Source of the DNA: Emergencia sp.
GTDB lineage: Bacteria; Bacillota; Clostridia; Peptostreptococcales; Anaerovoracaceae
Assembly (NCBI GenBank): GCA_051882975.1
Contig: JBJESV010000094.1
Location: 4,194-68,193, forward strand
Reading direction: 5' to 3'
DNA length: 64,000 nucleotides
This document shows positions 55,808 through 62,895 of the stretch, piece by piece; position 1 is the stretch's first letter, and each line of letters begins with the position of its first letter. The notes below the pieces were generated by a model that saw only the letters and a program-made list of their open reading frames with translations, had not been told where the DNA came from and made no database searches. Both the position numbers and the translations under genes were made by a program.

Positions 55808-56278
55808 ATGAAACACAGAATTATTACCCTGCTTTCAGTCATAGCATTAATAGCGGCTGCATCCTCTACAGCCTTTGCCGATATCTGTTTGACAGCACCG
55901 CAGATTGAAAAAGAATATTATCCCGATGGTTCTTATGCTGTTATAGAGACAACAACCCAGCAGGACAGCATTTCCCTTTTTGCATCCAGTTCTAAGTCTG
56001 CCAGAAGAACTAACACATACTACAATTCAAATAATACGAAAGCTTGGGATTTCACTCTGAAAGGAACATTCTCCTACGATGGAAGCACGGCCAAGGCTAC
56101 CGCAGCTTCCACCAGCTATAATATCTATGTCAGCGGATGGAAATGTACCGCCCGTGATGCGTGGACCACAGGATCAACAGCCAAAGGAAGTGCAACCTTT
56201 ACCTACAATTCCGTTATCGCAAAAGATGCTCTCCTCGGTCTGAAATGCTCCCCAACTGGAACCATCTCAGCCGCATAA
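55808..56278 (+). CDS. Secreted Ser/Thr-rich beta-strand protein of unknown function
   Basis: Signal peptide ending AFA; WDFTLKGTFSYDG; two C-terminal Cys; AGGAGG RBS. Confidence 0.7.
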   Translation: MKHRIITLLSVIALIAAASSTAFADICLTAPQIEKEYYPDGSYAVIETTTQQDSISLFASSSKSARRTNTYYNSNNTKAWDFTLKGTFSYDGSTAKATAASTSYNIYVSGWKCTARDAWTTGSTAKGSATFTYNSVIAKDALLGLKCSPTGTISAA

Positions 56279-56355
56279 GCGTGTCCACTCACCTGCCTGC
56301 CATTTGTCTACTGTACTTTTGCAGAAAACATTTTTATTTCACATATTATAATGCC

Positions 56356-56381
56356 AACAGGCCGCCCGCAGGCGGCCTGTT
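56356..56381. terminator. Bidirectional terminator
   Basis: AACAGGCCGCC-CGCA-GGCGGCCTGTT between convergent genes. Confidence 0.8.
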
Positions 56382-56415
56382 AAAATACATCTTACAATTT
56401 ATATGCTTTATTCTC

Positions 56416-57453
56416 CTACTCGGCTCTTTCCATAGCCAGACGGAAATCTCTGGTATCGGTGAAGATTTCGTTCTTGTACGGATTCTTCTTCTGTTCCTTT
56501 GCCCGCTTGATGATCACGGCAAGAACGATGACATTGGCTGCCAGAGCGATAACCGCCATGACACCCTGCATAGTCGGATCCGCAGTTTCCGGATGGATCG
56601 CCGCATCCATAAATCCGTCAGAATACAGGACAGGAATGGTGGTGAACCGGCTGTCGTCCTGGAAGGTCGGGAACACCTGTGCAAACATGCACCACAGCGC
56701 CAGTGTGTTGGCACGGTTCTGGATCCATCCGCCTTTGTTCCACAGTGCATTGGCAAAAGTCGGCGCCAGCAGCAGTGCAACACCGCAGAAAAACGCGTGG
56801 GTCGGCAGGTTATTGTATGTGTATTCGAAGTTCCACAGATCATAGGCCACGATGAACATCCAGGTCATATCCGGCCAGAGCATATCGTCGTGCTTCTTTG
56901 ATGTGTAGATGCCCCACCAGCCGGTCATGCAGAGAATATTCAGAATGCCGGCGATACCGTTGACCCAGTTCCACCAGCCCCCGTAGAGCCAAACGTTCTC
57001 AGAGGACAGCCACCAGCGGCTGCCGGTGTCGGCGAGAGCCATGGCTCCGCGGATACCCGATTCGAAATCGCTGCCTACAGCGATGAGGATATTGATAGCC
57101 ACGATGACGAACGGGAACACTTTGAACCACTCCGTCTTTCCGATGCTCCACTTGTACTTCAGCATCATGAAACCGATACATCCGGCTGTTGCCGCATACA
57201 GCTTGGCATAGTGGAACCAGCTGGTCATATGGACATAAGTCGGGTTGTTCAGCGCCCATTCAGCTCCATTGGCGGCACCGACATAGATCGCGATGAAGTA
57301 TACGGTCAGCGCTGCAGGCAGAATCAGAAAGCAGAAAATTCCTCCGGCCTTGCTCCTTCTTGCCACTTCGTTTCCCAGAATCAGTCCGGCAAATACCAGG
57401 AGCCATCCCAGCAGCTGCCAGCCTGCTCCGTCTCCGTAAAGTTGAAAAAACAT
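56416..57453 (-). CDS. DUF5692-like multi-pass membrane protein
   Basis: WFHYAKLY, WNWVNGIAG, WPDMTW...AYDLWN, WIQNRANTL pattern; about 8-9 TM segments; last gene of the hyp operon. Confidence 0.7.
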   Translation of the reverse strand: MFFQLYGDGAGWQLLGWLLVFAGLILGNEVARRSKAGGIFCFLILPAALTVYFIAIYVGAANGAEWALNNPTYVHMTSWFHYAKLYAATAGCIGFMMLKYKWSIGKTEWFKVFPFVIVAINILIAVGSDFESGIRGAMALADTGSRWWLSSENVWLYGGWWNWVNGIAGILNILCMTGWWGIYTSKKHDDMLWPDMTWMFIVAYDLWNFEYTYNNLPTHAFFCGVALLLAPTFANALWNKGGWIQNRANTLALWCMFAQVFPTFQDDSRFTTIPVLYSDGFMDAAIHPETADPTMQGVMAVIALAANVIVLAVIIKRAKEQKKNPYKNEIFTDTRDFRLAMERAE

Positions 57454-57504
57454 AACAGACCTCCTTAATTAATAATATCTCATTTATCTTCTCCGGATTC
57501 CGCG

Positions 57505-57849
57505 TCAGCAGGCCCGGATTTCCTTTATATTGACCTCATTTCCCTGCACCAGCACAGTCTTTTCGCTTCCGCAGAGGGGACAGATCCGTCCATGGGCCAC
57601 CGTGTCATAGGTCTTCCCGCAGTTCTCGCAAAAGGTCACTGCCGGGATTTCTTCTATGAGCAGCTCTGCACCCCGCAGAAGTTCGGACCTGCCGCAGGCC
57701 CATTTCCAGCATTCCAGCAGGCAGGTGTCCACGATGGTGCTCACCTGACCGATCTCCAGTGTCACAGAGGAAATCTCTGTCAGTCTGTTTTCCTTCCCCA
57801 CTTCTTCCAGACTGTCCATGATGTGAAATACGATTCCAAGCTCATGCAT
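57505..57849 (-). CDS. hypA: Nickel metallochaperone HypA
   Basis: N-terminal MHE Ni motif, CENC and CPLC Zn-finger pair, QGNE. Confidence 0.93.
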   Translation of the reverse strand: MHELGIVFHIMDSLEEVGKENRLTEISSVTLEIGQVSTIVDTCLLECWKWACGRSELLRGAELLIEEIPAVTFCENCGKTYDTVAHGRICPLCGSEKTVLVQGNEVNIKEIRAC

Positions 57850-57852
57850 AGG

Positions 57853-60606
57853 TTACTGATCCTTCTTTCCGAAAATGATCTTCATGCCCCGTTTTGCTGC
57901 ATAAGGCAGGATGGCCTTGAACTTGTCCTCTGCCTTGTACATTCTGCTAGCCTCCGGAAGCACCCTCTTCAGGTGAATGGCGTCGAACTCGCACTTGGTG
58001 GTGCAGACGCCGCAGCCGATGCACCGGTTCTGGTCCACTACAGATGCACCGCAGCCCAGGCACCTTGCCGTCTCCGCTTTCACCTGTTCTTCTGTAAAGG
58101 TCAGATGGGCGTCCCGGAAGGATGTTCTCTGGTCGATGGAAGGATCCGTCGGCGGAATCTGACGGCCTCCCCGGTCATAGCTTTCCAGACTGATATTCTC
58201 TTTATTCAGTTCTATGAACTGACGGCGGTTTCTTCCGATAGTCAGACTGCTCTGCGGCTGAACAAAACGGTGTATGGACACAGCGCCCTCCTTGCCTGCC
58301 GCAATGGCATCGATGGCAAATTTCGGTCCGGTGAGGACATCGCCTCCCGCAAAGATATCCGGTTCTGCAGTCTGGAAGGTGACAGGGTCTGCTGCGATCC
58401 GTCCTGCACCGTCAGTCTCTGCTTTTGATCCCGCCAGGAGTTCTCCCCAGCGGACGGCCTGACCGATGCTCAGATACACATGGTCGCAGGCGACGGTCAC
58501 CGTCTCCGTCTCATCATACACCGGAGCAAACCTGCCCGCTTCATCGAATACGGAAAGGCACTTTTTCAGCACGATGCCGCTGACATGTCCGTTTTCCGTC
58601 AGGATTTCCTTCGGACCCCAGCCGCAGTTTACAGTTACATTCTCCGACAGGGCTTCTGCGATTTCTTCTTCTGACGCAGGCATCTCCCCTCTGCTCTCCA
58701 GACAGAACATGGATACCTCCGCTGCCCCGCAGCGTACGCTGGTCCTCGCTGCATCGACGGCAACATTGCCTCCGCCGATGACTGCGACTCTGCCTGCAGA
58801 CTGGCCGGAAACCTCACCGGACAGATTTTCCGAGGCAACGCTGCGCAGGAAAGCCTGTGCGGTCATAACACCTTCCGCATCCTCTCCCGGGATACCGGCC
58901 TTTCTGCCGTCCTGGCAGCCGATGGCGATATAAAAGGCTTTGTAGCCCTGTGCTCTCAGCTCGTCCAGAGTGATGTCGCTGCCCACCTCGATGCCGCAGC
59001 GGATCTCCACGCCCATCTGACGAATGACATCGATTTCGGCATCCACCACATCTTTCTCCAGCTTATAGGACGGGATTCCATATGTAAGCATGCCGCCCGG
59101 CTTAGGGCTTTTTTCAAAGACCGTCGGTCTGTAGCCCTTTTCCGCCAGATAGAAGGCGCAGGAAAGGCCTGCCGGACCGGCTCCGATGATGGCGATCTTC
59201 TCTGTAAACGGTCCCCTGTTGGACGGCTGAATCACCGGCGGGATATAGCGGGTTTCTGCATCCAGATCCTTCTGGGCGATGAACTTTTTGACCTCGTCGA
59301 TGGCCACGGCCTCATCGACGGTTCCCCGGGTGCAGGCCTCCTCGCAGCGGCGGTTGCAGACTCTGCCGCAGACTGCCGGGAACGGATTCTCTTTTTTGAT
59401 CAGAGCCAGGGCTTCCGTATATCTGCCCTGGGAAGCCATGTTCAGATAACCCTGTACCGCAATATGGGCAGGACATGCTGTCTTGCACGGAGCCGTACCT
59501 GTATCGTAGCAGTTGATTCTGTTTCTGTCTCTGTAGTCCTCGGACCACTTCTCCGGCCCCCATTTCACTCTGTCAGGCAGCTCCTGCTTCGGATATTCCA
59601 CAGGCCCGTCCTTTGTGCACAGCTTCTGTCCCAGCTTTACCGCACCTGCCGGGCAGTGTTCCACGCACCGTCCGCAGGCCACGCAGTTTTCTGTCTTCGT
59701 TTCAGCCACATAGGCGGACCGGGACATGTTCGGCGTGTTGAAGAGCTGCGATGTCCGCAGAGCATAACAGACGTTGACATTGCAGTTGCAGATGCCGAAG
59801 ATTTTGTTCTCCCCGTCGATATTGGTGATCTGATGGACAAATCCGTTGTCCTCTGCCCGCTGCAGGATCTCCAGGACCTCTTCTCTTGTGATGTAGTGTC
59901 CCCGGTCGGTGTCCACCAGGTAGTCAGCCATGTCTCCCACGCCGATGCACCAGTCTTCCACATCATCGGCACATCCTTCTCCCATGACCTTGCGGGACAT
60001 ACGGCAGGAACACGGACTTGCCGCATATTTTCCGTCATATTTATCCAGCCAGTGGGAGATATGCTCCACCGGAACCGACTGGTTCTCCATCTCGATGGCC
60101 TTCTCCACCGGAATCACATGCATGCCGATGCCTGCACCGCCCGGCGGAACCATAGCGGTGACCTTTTCCAGGGGCAGGCGGGACATTCTCTCGAAGAAAT
60201 GGGCCAGCTCCGGGTGCTCCTCCAGCTGCTGCGCATTCATGTTGGTGAATTCCGCACTGCCCGGCACAAACATAGGCAGGACGTACTGCTTCTCCCGTTT
60301 CGGGTTTTCCCAGTTGTATTCCAGCAGACCCACCACGCACATATCGAAGAGCAGCTTCTCCAGCTTTTCCTCCTCCATGCCGGTGGCCTGAACCAGCTGA
60401 GGCAGTGTCATAGGATTTCTCACCTTCATCTTCAGGGCCACATCTGCCATCTCATCGGTGACCACGCAGGCAAGACCCCAGTATTCCGGATCGTCTGCAG
60501 TGACCTTGTGTCCGATTCTGTCTGTGATCATCTGACCCAGCTGCAGAATTTTCTCTCTCACCGGCTCCTGAGGGAGATCCGGCTTATATCCTCTGTACTT
60601 ATCCAT
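57853..60606 (-). CDS. 917-aa Fe-S flavoprotein: Cys-rich N-terminal domain + ferredoxin + GltD/SudA-like FAD/NAD(P)H module + C-terminal ferredoxin
   Basis: CSCR and ICNCNVNVC; CVACGRCVEHCP; APCKTACP...CGRVCNRRCEEAC; IIGAGPAG; IGGGNVA; RCLGC; CIGCGVCTTKC. Start at 60606, 2 nt after the hypB stop, GGAG RBS. Confidence 0.88.
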   Translation of the reverse strand: MDKYRGYKPDLPQEPVREKILQLGQMITDRIGHKVTADDPEYWGLACVVTDEMADVALKMKVRNPMTLPQLVQATGMEEEKLEKLLFDMCVVGLLEYNWENPKREKQYVLPMFVPGSAEFTNMNAQQLEEHPELAHFFERMSRLPLEKVTAMVPPGGAGIGMHVIPVEKAIEMENQSVPVEHISHWLDKYDGKYAASPCSCRMSRKVMGEGCADDVEDWCIGVGDMADYLVDTDRGHYITREEVLEILQRAEDNGFVHQITNIDGENKIFGICNCNVNVCYALRTSQLFNTPNMSRSAYVAETKTENCVACGRCVEHCPAGAVKLGQKLCTKDGPVEYPKQELPDRVKWGPEKWSEDYRDRNRINCYDTGTAPCKTACPAHIAVQGYLNMASQGRYTEALALIKKENPFPAVCGRVCNRRCEEACTRGTVDEAVAIDEVKKFIAQKDLDAETRYIPPVIQPSNRGPFTEKIAIIGAGPAGLSCAFYLAEKGYRPTVFEKSPKPGGMLTYGIPSYKLEKDVVDAEIDVIRQMGVEIRCGIEVGSDITLDELRAQGYKAFYIAIGCQDGRKAGIPGEDAEGVMTAQAFLRSVASENLSGEVSGQSAGRVAVIGGGNVAVDAARTSVRCGAAEVSMFCLESRGEMPASEEEIAEALSENVTVNCGWGPKEILTENGHVSGIVLKKCLSVFDEAGRFAPVYDETETVTVACDHVYLSIGQAVRWGELLAGSKAETDGAGRIAADPVTFQTAEPDIFAGGDVLTGPKFAIDAIAAGKEGAVSIHRFVQPQSSLTIGRNRRQFIELNKENISLESYDRGGRQIPPTDPSIDQRTSFRDAHLTFTEEQVKAETARCLGCGASVVDQNRCIGCGVCTTKCEFDAIHLKRVLPEASRMYKAEDKFKAILPYAAKRGMKIIFGKKDQ

Positions 60607-60608
60607 GG

Positions 60609-61286
60609 TTACTTCTCCTGTTCTTTCCATTTCCTCACCTGCTCTGCAAGCCATGCAGTCCAGGCATCCATGCCTTCTCCGGTCTTCGCGCTGACCGGGA
60701 AGATCTCAGCTTTCGGATTTCTCATGTGGATGTATTCTATGCATTTTTCCACGTCGAAATCGAAATACGGCAATACGTCTGTCTTGTTAATGAGCACCGC
60801 ATCGCATACGGTGAACATCAGCGGGTATTTCAGAGGTTTGTCATGTCCCTCCGGAACCGACAGAATCATGGCGTTTTTTACCGCACCGGTATCAAATTCG
60901 GCAGGGCAGACCAGATTTCCCACGTTCTCCAGGACAACCAGATCCGCATCTCCTGCCGCCAGTCCCTCCATGCCCTGTCGCGTCATATCCGCATCCAGGT
61001 GACACATGCCTCCGGTATGCAGCTGGATGGTCTGCACTCCTGCCTGTGAAACGGTCTGTGCGTCCACATCGGAGTCGATATCCGCCTCCATGACGGCAAT
61101 CTTCAGCTGATCTCTCAGTGCATCAATGGTCCGCATCAGGGTGGTGGTCTTCCCCGATCCCGGTGATGACATGAGGTTCAGGAGAAATACACCTTTTTCT
61201 TTCAGTTCCTTTCTCAGAAGATCCGCCCTGGCATCGTTGTCGGCGAAAACACTCTTTTTGATCTCAAGCACTTTATACTCTTTCAT
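60609..61286 (-). CDS. hypB: Nickel-insertion GTPase HypB
   Basis: NLMSSPGSGKTT, GGMCHLDA (Ni-binding CH), ENVGNLVCPAEFDTG, INKTD, SAKTG. Confidence 0.95.
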   Translation of the reverse strand: MKEYKVLEIKKSVFADNDARADLLRKELKEKGVFLLNLMSSPGSGKTTTLMRTIDALRDQLKIAVMEADIDSDVDAQTVSQAGVQTIQLHTGGMCHLDADMTRQGMEGLAAGDADLVVLENVGNLVCPAEFDTGAVKNAMILSVPEGHDKPLKYPLMFTVCDAVLINKTDVLPYFDFDVEKCIEYIHMRNPKAEIFPVSAKTGEGMDAWTAWLAEQVRKWKEQEK

Positions 61287-61311
61287 AGCCTGTTCCTCTT
61301 TCTCAATTTAT

Positions 61312-61365
61312 CGTGGCTGTACCAGTGTTTGTTAATATGTTATCATTGTCAAAATAGACTGTCAA
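61312..61365 (-). promoter_or_regulatory. hypB operon promoter with a downstream FadR-type operator
   Basis: TTGACA (61360-65)-17 nt-TAACAT (61337-42); operator CTGGTACAGCCAC (61313-25) just past the predicted +1. Confidence 0.7.
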
Positions 61366-61396
61366 TTACCGGAGCCCTGTAATCGAGCGGTTTCAG

Positions 61397-61451
61397 TTGA
61401 ATGTACTGCGGAAATATGATAAAATCATCACGTGGTATCTGGTATAGCCAC
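61397..61451 (+). promoter_or_regulatory. GntR/FadR gene promoter with a second operator copy
   Basis: TTGAAT (61397-402)-17 nt-TAAAAT (61420-25); CTGGTATAGCCAC at 61439-51. Confidence 0.65.
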
Positions 61452-61533
61452 AGTCAGAGCGCAAAAATAAGGCACAGAATACCCGCAAGCAGCGGAGAAG
61501 AAACTGAGAAAAGAGCATGAAAGGAAGGAAATT

Positions 61534-62241
61534 ATGGAATTCAGCAGACTATCGGCGCCCAGCCTGAAGGATCTTTTTATCAAGCAGCTGCAGGGCATGA
61601 TCCTGTCGGGAGAACTGCCCGTCGGTACCAGACTTCCTCCCGAACGGGAGCTGGCGCAGCAGATGCAGGTCAGCCGCGCAGTCATCAACGGAGGGCTCAA
61701 TGAACTTGAGAAACAGGGATTTCTGGAAATAATCCCCCGTCAGGGCACCTTTGTGACGGACTACAGAAGGACGGGGAGTCTTACCACTCTCACCGCCATC
61801 ATGGAATATCAGGGAGGTGTTCTGGGAAATGGAGAGATCCTTTCCATCCTGGAAGTACGCCGTGCTCTGGAACATCTGGTCGTCCAGCGTACCATAGAAT
61901 CGGCCTCTGACGAAGAGATCAGCGGACTTGGAGAAATCGCGGCCCGTCTTCGCAAAGCCAGGACTCCCGAAGAAGCGGCAGAAACCGCCTTTCAGTTCCA
62001 GCATGAGCTGGCTCTGATCAGCGGTAACTGCATCGTTCCGTTATTCTATTATTCTTTCAAAGCGCCTGTCATCACCATGTGGATCCGGTTCTGCAGGCTG
62101 TACGGCATTGAAGCGCTCTGCAGCAATGCTGAAACGCTGTACTATCACATCTGCTCCAGAAATCTGCCTGCAGCCTCAGCATGGATCGACGACTATCTGG
62201 AAAAAGCCATCAGCGGCAGCCAGCAGATCTATGAGCGCTAA
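61534..62241 (+). CDS. GntR-family regulator, FadR subfamily
   Basis: GTRLPPERELAQQMQVSRAVI wHTH; ILEVRRALE...FQHELALISGN FCD-like domain; divergent from hypB. Confidence 0.92.
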   Translation: MEFSRLSAPSLKDLFIKQLQGMILSGELPVGTRLPPERELAQQMQVSRAVINGGLNELEKQGFLEIIPRQGTFVTDYRRTGSLTTLTAIMEYQGGVLGNGEILSILEVRRALEHLVVQRTIESASDEEISGLGEIAARLRKARTPEEAAETAFQFQHELALISGNCIVPLFYYSFKAPVITMWIRFCRLYGIEALCSNAETLYYHICSRNLPAASAWIDDYLEKAISGSQQIYER

Positions 62242-62693
62242 ATTCTGCTGCTCCACACTCTGTAAGCGATAAAGTAGGTGATCAGCTGCAGATAGATGGC
62301 AGCGATGACCAGAAGGGACGGCACCACATAACCCAGTCCCACCAGGACAAAGGCCAGTACGGCGAAGGTGATCACGCCGCTTACAGCGACGATGGACATG
62401 GTCTTCTCCATGAGACGGACATTCCGCTCGTCGTTTTTTTCGATCTCCTTCTCCTTTTTCTTTTCCGGCGACATGAAACGGTCGCGGAGCTCGAAGAACA
62501 CCGCAAGGGCCAGCAGGCCTGTACCTGCACCGGAGAACATGCCTGCCAGCATGGACAGATTGTGCTGGCTTTCCTCCAAGCAGCTGTTGAAGACGATGCC
62601 GAAAATCAGGCTGAAGATGCCTGCGGCAAATACAGCAATCCTCATGATCTTTTCTGCTTTTTTATCTCCTGTTCCACAAATTCTGCATAACAT
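62238..62693 (-). CDS. Four-TM membrane protein paired with an XRE regulator
   Basis: TM pairs around KEKEIEKNDERN motif; ATG at 62693 behind GAGGAGG. Confidence 0.65.
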   Translation of the reverse strand: MLCRICGTGDKKAEKIMRIAVFAAGIFSLIFGIVFNSCLEESQHNLSMLAGMFSGAGTGLLALAVFFELRDRFMSPEKKKEKEIEKNDERNVRLMEKTMSIVAVSGVITFAVLAFVLVGLGYVVPSLLVIAAIYLQLITYFIAYRVWSSRI

Positions 62694-62694
62694 T

Positions 62695-62895
62695 TTACAA
62701 ATCCTCCTCATAGATAAATATCTCTTCGATGGTCATGCCGAAGTATCTTGCGATCTTGAACGCCAGCAGGATGGACGGGTTGTACTTCCCGTTTTCCAGT
62801 GAGCTGATGGTCTGCCTGGACACTTCCAGCGCCTTTGCCAGCTCGTCCTGCCTGATTCCTCTGGCTGACCTGATCTCTTCAAGTCTGTTTTTCAT
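62695..62895 (-). CDS. XRE/Cro-C1 family HTH regulator
   Basis: MKNRLEEIR...QDELAKALEVSRQTISSLENGKYNPSILLAFKIA. Confidence 0.93.
   Translation of the reverse strand: MKNRLEEIRSARGIRQDELAKALEVSRQTISSLENGKYNPSILLAFKIARYFGMTIEEIFIYEEDL

Follow-up and report, generated by a model that had tools for sequence, protein, structure and literature searches.

The 64,000-nt stretch of DNA analyzed here (the window) originates from Emergencia sp. (Anaerovoracaceae; assembly GCA_051882975.1, contig JBJESV010000094.1, positions 4,194-68,193 of the forward strand) and contains a compact cluster in which the genes of two nickel chaperones, HypB and HypA, flank the gene of a 917-aa Fe-S flavoprotein. Taken together, the data are best explained, with reasonable though by no means strong confidence, by a self-contained and repressor-controlled operon for a reductase of the IsrA family. 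IsrA is the 'putative isoprene reductase' of Acetobacterium wieringae, whose gene cluster and 'clade 9' homologs have been described (Kronen et al., 2023, mSystems; PMC10134865). The flavoprotein is almost certainly a member of this clade, a placement based on a full-length alignment of the family sharing its N-terminal domain, with IsrA compared by its published description, and it is likely to be the nickel client of HypA and HypB. The locus is one more copy of the published IsrA-type cluster and not a new system.

Organization of the operon

Four minus-strand genes are arranged head to tail in the order hypB, flavoprotein gene, hypA and DUF5692 gene, and a regulator gene diverges from them. 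Coordinates are positions in the window, unless a contig or a locus is named:

60609-61286, minus strand: hypB, 225 aa, nickel-binding GTPase chaperone of the Helicobacter pylori type (TIGR00073, PF02492, motifs)
57853-60606, minus strand: IsrA-family ('clade 9') Fe-S flavoprotein, 917 aa from MDKYRGY, presumed catalytic subunit and nickel client (Pfam, homologs)
57505-57849, minus strand: hypA, 114 aa, nickel metallochaperone (PF01155, MHE and two CxxC motifs)
56416-57453, minus strand: DUF5692 polytopic membrane protein, 345 aa (PF18948, 472.5 bits)
61534-62241, plus strand: divergent GntR-family regulator with an FCD ligand domain (PF00392, PF07729)

The gaps between the four genes are of 2 nt (hypB to flavoprotein), 3 nt (flavoprotein to hypA) and 51 nt (hypA to DUF5692). 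The first junction reads ...GAGAAGTAA-CC-ATG and the second ...CAGTAA-CCT-ATG, and the 51-nt spacer ends with AAGGAGG-N6-ATG, a strong ribosome-binding site ahead of the DUF5692 gene. The flavoprotein start is placed at the ATG at 60606, with GGAG located 7 nt ahead of it. A longer, 933-aa form starting at the ATG at 60654 was rejected, as it would overlap hypB by 46 nt and as alignments with homologs begin at about residue 1-17 of the 917-aa protein.

HypB scores well above the curated cut-off of its family (TIGR00073, 248.8 bits for a cut-off of 121.2), is also matched by PF02492 and contains GSGKTT (G1) at residue 43, CH at 95, ENVGNLVCP at 120 and NKTD at 167. It resembles H. pylori HypB in the CH...C nickel site of its G-domain; the N-terminal high-affinity site is absent, with neither a His-rich nor a CxxCGC region. 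In HypA, the MHE motif is found at residue 1 and the two CxxC motifs are CENC at 74 and CPLC at 90. By sequence, this protein belongs to the HypA-fold family (PF01155, 101.3 bits for a cut-off of 28.9) but to a divergent subfamily, since its score for NCBIfam TIGR00100 falls under the cut-off (64.8 versus 88.1). A preliminary description of the window had reported four co-directional genes with HypB and HypA around a 917-aa flavoprotein and a membrane protein in last position, gaps of 2, 3 and 51 nt, an intact HypB with its CH motif and G-motifs, and a HypA with MHE and two CxxC motifs. All of this holds on re-reading: the layout is supported by sequence and Pfam matches, the gaps are exact, the G1-G4 and CH...C nickel-site motifs of HypB can be located and so can all those of HypA.

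The flavoprotein and its N-terminal domain

The flavoprotein is composed of the following parts:

Residues 1-290 (59737-60606, minus strand): N-terminal domain, with a winged-helix-like part and, after it, a Cys-rich alpha/beta part; no Pfam match and no PDB sequence match
Cys6 (+His) region (59767-60012, minus strand): C199-x-C201, C220, H258, C273-x-C275 and C280, plus C212, which is specific to the clade; proposed Ni/Fe-S site
Residues 300-325: Fer4
Residues 366-448: Fer4_20
Residues 470-771: Pyr_redox_2
Residues 856-877: Fer4

Residues 310-860 match, by sequence, NfnABC (9bov_A, E 6.6e-101), StnABC (8oh5_C), NfnI, dihydropyrimidine dehydrogenase (DPD) and GltD, and the same relatives are retrieved by fold (Foldseek, E 1.6e-38). 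The predicted model of the protein has a predicted local distance difference test score (pLDDT) of 78.7 and a predicted template modeling score (pTM) of 0.83, and a Foldseek search of the PDB with the whole model yields matches limited to this Nfn/DPD/GltD part. Accordingly, everything that an NfnB/GltD-type module requires is present, i.e. a two-cluster Fer4_20 domain together with Rossmann domains for flavin adenine dinucleotide (FAD) and NAD(P)H, which are common to NfnB/NfnABC, StnABC, GltD and the N-terminal half of DPD. As in DPD, such a module would pass electrons through Fe-S clusters to a separate C=C-reducing site. In contrast to all these enzymes, the protein has no NfnA partner, molybdopterin-like domain or flavin mononucleotide (FMN)/dihydroorotate dehydrogenase domain and carries the N-terminal Cys6 domain instead; these relatives, moreover, use neither HypA nor HypB. 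The flavoprotein reaches no NCBIfam equivalog cut-off (the best being NF009410, 434.7 versus 516) and is therefore none of the enzymes so named. Its cysteine motifs outside the N-terminal domain (C308/311/314/318 with C862/865/868/872, and C374/378 with C413/417/421/425) are compatible with about four [4Fe-4S] clusters.

The N-terminal domain has no match among PDB sequences even at E<=10. One apparent relative, the 352-aa ferredoxin 9sfi_T, was discarded, as the match covers the Fer4 motif only. Among 1.84 billion representatives, 1433 relatives of the domain are found at E<=0.001 and 564 at E<=1e-10, and the model is confident across residues 181-260 (pLDDT 81-91). Residues C199, C201, C212, C220, C273, C275, C280 and H258 are invariant in 44 of 44 close homologs (64-80% identity). 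In 14 distant representatives at 34-58% identity, picked from the 1433 relatives, all of them are again invariant except C212, which varies; the cluster names of these representatives are uninformative. The own subclade has the motif CNCNVNVC, versus CNCCxCxC in distant members. When sequence positions are set against the published description, the two CxC motifs and six cysteines correspond to the Cys6 'cluster V' of IsrA.

A stand-alone paralog of this domain is encoded elsewhere in the genome (contig C8:44919-46223). This 434-aa protein shares 25% identity over residues 51-327, has the motifs CYCR...CNCCGCCCE followed by two Fer4 motifs, and has no hyp genes nearby; a 650-aa Fe-S flavoenzyme of the old yellow enzyme type is encoded 1.4 kb away on the same strand.

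Relation to the IsrA family

In IsrA (VUZ27132.1; 901 aa), the domains follow one another as in the present flavoprotein, and two CxC motifs and the Cys6 'cluster V' are likewise present (Kronen et al., 2023). IsrA has been proposed to be a nickel client that binds the metal at 'cluster V', where a predicted substrate tunnel ends (Kronen et al., 2023). The isr operon is induced by isoprene and associates IsrA with two HypA, HypB and a ferredoxin; IsrA, HypB, one HypA and the ferredoxin are upregulated by log2 6-11 with isoprene, in a strain, A. wieringae ISORED-2, which possesses neither a [NiFe]-hydrogenase nor hypCDEF (Kronen et al., 2023). Across the neighborhoods of 988 clade 9 homologs, HypA occurs at a frequency of 0.73, HypB of 0.56, DUF5692 of 0.40 and TetR of 0.21, and hydrogenase genes are absent (Kronen et al., 2023). 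Similarly, in Pelotomaculum exposed to isoprene, hypA is upregulated 373-fold and hypB 585-fold (preprint 10.64898/2026.02.25.708027).

Several features described for clade 9 are found here: an architecture of about 900 aa, six cysteines with two CxC motifs in the N-terminal domain, a hypA/hypB/DUF5692 neighborhood and no hydrogenase genes. The likeness to IsrA further extends to the size of the N-terminal domain (about 270-290 aa), to the succession of Fer4, DPD-type Fer4_20, FAD/NAD(P)H and C-terminal Fer4 domains, to the presence of hypA and hypB in the operon, to a host genome lacking [NiFe]-hydrogenase and to DUF5692, a frequent neighbor in the clade. There are also differences. In contrast to the isr operon, a single hypA is present instead of two, the 350-aa ferredoxin paralog is lacking, and DUF5692 and a divergent GntR/FCD regulator are added; compared with IsrA, the motif reads CNCNVNVC and an extra invariant cysteine, C212, is present. 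The preliminary description regarded the system as a candidate undescribed one and knew of no characterized enzyme with this arrangement. This view does not stand, since the same architecture, the hyp/DUF5692 neighborhood and the proposal of nickel at Cys6 have been published (PMC10134865). What the present locus contributes is a set of conserved TGGT..ACCA operator-like sites, a self-contained and apparently horizontally spread cassette, and a DUF5692 model without a structural relative in the PDB. SpiE of Eubacterium coprostanoligenes was also considered as a related protein and rejected, as it is a short-chain dehydrogenase/reductase.

Conservation and spread of the cassette

Synteny was assessed in the best 80 of 582 flavoprotein relatives retrieved by a scan of a genome collection. 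These 80 loci come from gut and rumen organisms of three phyla (Bacillota, Spirochaetota and Actinomycetota), namely Lachnospiraceae, Oscillospiraceae, Erysipelotrichaceae, Anaerovoracaceae, rumen Treponema and Collinsella. Conservation of the gene order across genomes had been named in the preliminary description as a way to check it, and the order indeed recurs in most of the 80 loci, which places the arrangement far beyond chance. A hypA gene lies directly downstream of the flavoprotein gene (same strand, within <=400 bp) in 65 of the 68 loci that could be assessed; an upstream hypB on the same strand is present in 59 of 79. Among the 50 loci with 3 kb on either side of the flavoprotein gene, HypA is encoded in 47, HypB in 43, DUF5692 in 37 and a GntR/FCD regulator in 26; HypA, HypB and DUF5692 occur together in 31. 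When all flanking open reading frames of the related loci were clustered, no sixth conserved family emerged. As no further neighbor family is conserved, the cassette is self-contained, in otherwise unrelated surroundings.

Some loci depart from the full arrangement. A deep branch with the CNCCxCxC motif (L084:8001-11012 and L085:8001-11015), at 32% identity in the N-terminal domain, has hypA 13 nt downstream of the flavoprotein gene and no hypB, DUF5692 or nearby regulator, and thus forms a two-gene unit. This is a very abundant gut branch (a cluster of 1353 members), and since it retains hypA alone, HypA is the most persistent partner. In five Collinsella loci (L076, L077 and L080-L082), a variant layout within Actinomycetota, DUF5692 and a TetR-like gene diverge from a flavoprotein-hypA pair without hypB. 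Conversely, neither hyp gene is found within 3 kb in 3 of the 50 well-flanked loci, E. coprostanoligenes included. In L071 (7995-11919) and L078 (5730-9653), which represent E. coprostanoligenes ATCC 51222 and a relative, and in L015, the flavoprotein gene is accompanied by DUF5692 and the six cysteines are intact, and neither hypA nor hypB is present within 8 kb. These organisms may encode the chaperones at another place, or their enzymes may function without them.

In the protein tree, the Treponema clade is nested inside Bacillota and families are interleaved. A plasmid search gave a single match, L083 (OY725877.1:185179-204009), which encodes a flavoprotein with a 78% identical N-terminal domain. 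The record is a 267-kb circular 'plasmid 43' of Subdoligranulum variabile, typed as mobilizable (MOBV); it is almost unannotated, with no annotation where the match lies. Because of this tree topology and of the copy on a mobilizable record, the cassette appears to have spread horizontally.

The flavoprotein as the probable nickel client

HypA and HypB are known for nickel delivery to [NiFe]-hydrogenase and, in H. pylori, to urease. The present chaperones share with these systems the MHE nickel site, the two-CxxC zinc site and a location beside the presumed client. The difference lies in the client itself, which would be the flavoprotein, as no hydrogenase large subunit, HypD, maturation protease or urease was found in the genome. 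This genome is a draft of 2.25 Mb in 97 contigs (97.67% complete, 0.75% contaminated). Profile searches of it returned no match to PF00374 or PF00346 ([NiFe]-hydrogenase large subunit, Complex1_49kDa), none to PF03063 (carbon monoxide dehydrogenase (CODH)/Hcp) or PF00449 (urease), and none to PF01924 (HypD), HypC, HypE and HypF not having been searched separately. A single HypA is encoded. The absence of hydrogenase, ure and coo genes, first noted for the window, therefore extends to the whole assembly.

Three lines of evidence support the flavoprotein as the client of HypA and HypB. First, the chaperone genes are translationally coupled to the flavoprotein gene. Second, the pairing persists across the 80 loci and into the branch at 32% N-domain identity. 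Third, the 97.7%-complete genome is devoid of hydrogenase, CODH, urease and HypD. Of the preliminary description, this part survives: with its coupled genes, its synteny and an empty inventory of other clients, the flavoprotein as the HypA/HypB client is the best-supported interpretation of the locus, even if the system is not an undescribed one. A nickel ion next to or within a Cys-ligated Fe-S cluster that ends an electron chain has precedents in the C-cluster of CODH and the A-cluster of acetyl-CoA synthase, an analogy drawn by Kronen et al. (2023; PMC10134865). The likeness does not extend to sequence or fold, the genome having, as stated, no PF03063 match, and maturation of those sites relies on CooC or AcsF and not on HypA/HypB.

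Alternatively, the N-terminal domain could bind an unusual Fe-S cluster only, in a nickel-free enzyme, HypA and HypB acting as a zinc/nickel buffer, as a folding or assembly scaffold or as a metal-dependent regulator. CxC motifs are indeed known Fe-S ligands (PMC10134865), the paralog on contig C8 has no hyp genes nearby, the 3 of 50 loci without hypAB near the flavoprotein gene keep all their cysteines, and HypA scores below its NCBIfam equivalog cut-off. Set against this, the nickel-binding features are intact in both chaperones (MHE in HypA, CH and a second cysteine in the G-domain of HypB), the chaperones are co-induced with IsrA (PMC10134865), and translational coupling combined with adjacency in 65 of 68 loci would hardly be expected if the flavoprotein were not a direct client. 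We regard a nickel-free enzyme as unlikely.

Another possibility is that the client of HypA and HypB is a different nickel enzyme, be it one whose gene falls in the unassembled 2.3% of the genome, a LarA homolog or an unrecognized nickel protein, and that the chaperone genes neighbor the flavoprotein gene only by chance or for co-regulation. The assembly is a 97-contig draft, and a distant LarA homolog (421 aa, Lar_N 217 bits; contig C59:75301-76566) is the only other nickel enzyme found in the genome. It is textbook knowledge, however, that the nickel-pincer cofactor of LarA is supplied by LarB, LarC and LarE, and not by HypA/HypB. In addition, the hydrogenase, CODH, urease and HypD profiles are unmatched genome-wide, the adjacency is kept across three phyla amid unrelated flanks, and A. 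wieringae ISORED-2 likewise lacks hydrogenase and hypCDEF (PMC10134865). Such a separate client is very improbable.

The DUF5692 membrane protein

The DUF5692 protein is predicted to consist of about nine long helices and contains 20 Trp in 345 residues. Its AlphaFold2 model (pLDDT 82.4, pTM 0.81) retrieved nothing significant from the PDB with Foldseek (best E 0.16, TM <=0.25), and no NCBIfam match was obtained at E<=10. Several invariant polar or metal-ligand-type residues are located within the helices, i.e. E29, D129, D190, D195, D205, H219, C92 and C223. In the operon, its most likely role is to deliver or present a membrane-soluble substrate to the flavoprotein.

It may also be asked whether, with the enzyme functioning as proposed, DUF5692 imports nickel or another metal and has no part in substrate handling. 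Operons of nickel enzymes often carry their own permease, the invariant residues just listed include potential metal ligands inside helices, and a low-sensitivity scan of the genome for NiCoT, CbiM/NikM and HupE motifs yielded only noise. Yet DUF5692 still accompanies the flavoprotein in loci devoid of hypA and hypB (L071, L078 and L015) and is missing from 13 of the 50 well-flanked loci, most of which still have hypAB. It bears no likeness in sequence or fold to known transporters, and its Trp richness suits the binding of lipids or aromatic compounds better than ion transport. A role as metal importer is, on this evidence, unlikely.

Regulator and operator-like sites

The divergent gene encodes a protein which, by sequence, is a GntR-family regulator with an FCD domain, and a homolog accompanies the cassette in 26 of the 50 well-flanked loci. 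The preliminary description called it a dedicated, divergent FadR regulator; the divergent orientation is correct and the FadR subfamily applies in a broad sense, but FadR proper does not, since the scores remain far below the equivalog cut-offs (NF003444, 47.2 versus 189; TIGR02812, 42.8 versus 249).

The following elements are located in the 247-bp gntR-hypB spacer and after the last gene of the operon:

61433-61450, minus strand: operator-like site A, TGGCTATACCAGATACCA, with GntR-type TGGT..ACCA half-sites, beside the regulator gene
61337-61365, minus strand: promoter-like site of the hypB operon, TTGACA, 17 nt, TAACAT, with a TG extension (consensus scan, 10/12 positions, a pattern match only)
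61314-61324, minus strand: operator-like site B, TGGTACAGCCA, immediately after the -10 element of the operon promoter
56359-56378, minus strand: GC-rich hairpin AGGCCGCC-TGCG-GGCGGCCT after the DUF5692 gene, read from the sequence

The two GntR-type TGGT..ACCA sites of the spacer, which overlap the promoter region, were found by counting k-mers and half-sites across intergenic regions; a search of the gntR-hypB intergenic regions for perfect palindromes found none. An analogue of site A, TGG-N-[TC]-[AG]-TACCA, is present at the same place (about index 35-125) in 20 of 20 other divergent gntR-hypB spacers, usually followed by a second ACCA-type half-site. At the position equivalent to site B, TGGTA(T/C)(A/N)(A/G)CCA occurs in 13 of the 20 other loci, for instance as CTGGTATAACCAG in L011 and L004. 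Given these conserved sites in the spacer, the protein is probably a dedicated and autoregulated repressor, acting on both the operon and its own gene. FCD-domain regulators typically sense carboxylates, a weak hint at an inducer of the carboxylate type.

The hairpin at 56359-56378 is likely the operon terminator, common to the convergent gene; it was not listed by the consensus scan, owing to its weak T-tract. An Rfam search of 56000-62800 (E<=1) revealed no riboswitch or other element.

Proposed mechanism and substrate

A mechanism can be proposed in which the GTPase HypB, together with HypA, would load the Cys6 site with Ni(II), either within an Fe-S cluster or next to it. Electrons from NAD(P)H would flow to FAD and, through the four [4Fe-4S] clusters, to this Ni/Fe-S site, where a hydrophobic unsaturated compound would be hydrogenated at a non-activated C=C bond. 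This scheme is reminiscent of two systems: DPD would serve as the analogy for the electron flow, and the isoprene-induced IsrA of A. wieringae, whose candidate substrate is a conjugated diene, as the analogy for the chemistry. DUF5692 would supply the membrane-soluble substrate, or would instead import nickel, and the GntR/FCD protein would repress the operon at the TGGT..ACCA sites and release it upon binding the substrate or a related carboxylate. By analogy, the case for the flavoprotein being a C=C reductase appears to us evenly poised.

Isoprene is an unlikely substrate in the present organism, since it is a gut-type Clostridia bacterium. The own subclade is widespread in bacteria of the human gut and rumen, such as Roseburia, Agathobacter, Lachnospira, Gemmiger, Ruthenibacterium, Collinsella and rumen Treponema, and the substrate is therefore likely a compound plentiful in the diet or the host. 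Cultured carriers include Pygmaiobacter massiliensis Marseille-P3336, Ruthenibacterium lactatiformans, Gemmiger formicilis and Allofournierella massiliensis. Our tentative suggestion, on balance a doubtful one, is an unsaturated or conjugated fatty-acid-like lipid; conjugated linoleic acids and other polyenes would be the candidate substrates if lipids are hydrogenated. Taken to its full extent, this suggestion would define a new class of nickel enzymes in gut and rumen anaerobes, in which a Ni-Fe-S center in the Cys6 pocket, loaded by HypA and HypB alone, hydrogenates non-activated or conjugated C=C bonds of dietary or host lipids, DUF5692 being a new type of lipid-handing membrane protein. 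So complete a scenario is improbable at present.

Several observations weigh against an IsrA-type nickel reductase acting on lipids. The link of the IsrA family with isoprene is correlative, and in the literature we found no paper in which a member of the family was purified or its nickel measured. The paralog on contig C8 suggests that the Cys-rich domain may simply hold an Fe-S cluster, and the loci without hyp genes within 3 kb point in the same direction. The fatty-acid proposal leans on points that are weak in themselves, i.e. the membrane partner, the types of regulator (GntR/FCD here, TetR elsewhere) and the oleate hydratase which adjoins homologs in some Acetobacterium species (PMC10134865). 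Furthermore, the clustering of flanking open reading frames revealed no fatty-acid gene conserved beside the own subclade, and the literature yielded no link between the IsrA family and fatty-acid biohydrogenation.

Few enzymes are known for the biological hydrogenation of unactivated alkenes, and the IsrA family, though already published, is an appealing subject of study. Should the presence of nickel be confirmed, the family would represent a new class of nickel enzymes and a third type of HypA/HypB client after hydrogenase and urease; if lipids prove to be hydrogenated, a genetically undefined reductase of fatty-acid biohydrogenation will have been named. The present locus adds no new principle. 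Its value lies in a compact, five-gene and repressor-controlled cassette whose clear operator candidates allow the inducer, and through it the substrate, to be approached directly by experiment.

Neighboring genes and other observations

A gene for a 157-aa membrane protein (62238-62711, minus strand) is convergent with the regulator gene, with an overlap over the last 4 nt of the latter. It was considered as a member of the cassette and rejected, as it has no counterpart among the 80 related loci. On contig C59 (71134-76566), the LarA homolog ends a run of aconitase-family and isopropylmalate-dehydrogenase-like genes, and its substrate, as a possible nickel-pincer racemase or epimerase, may be a hydroxy-tricarboxylate rather than lactate. 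Finally, a 784-aa open reading frame on contig C14 (near 45588, minus strand) contains an extremely His/Cys/Asp-rich stretch, ...HCGCGCDHDHHAEHHHEEHHHDEHHDHDCHDDHCGCGCGHEDHEEH..., probably the part of a heavy-metal P-type ATPase that binds metal.

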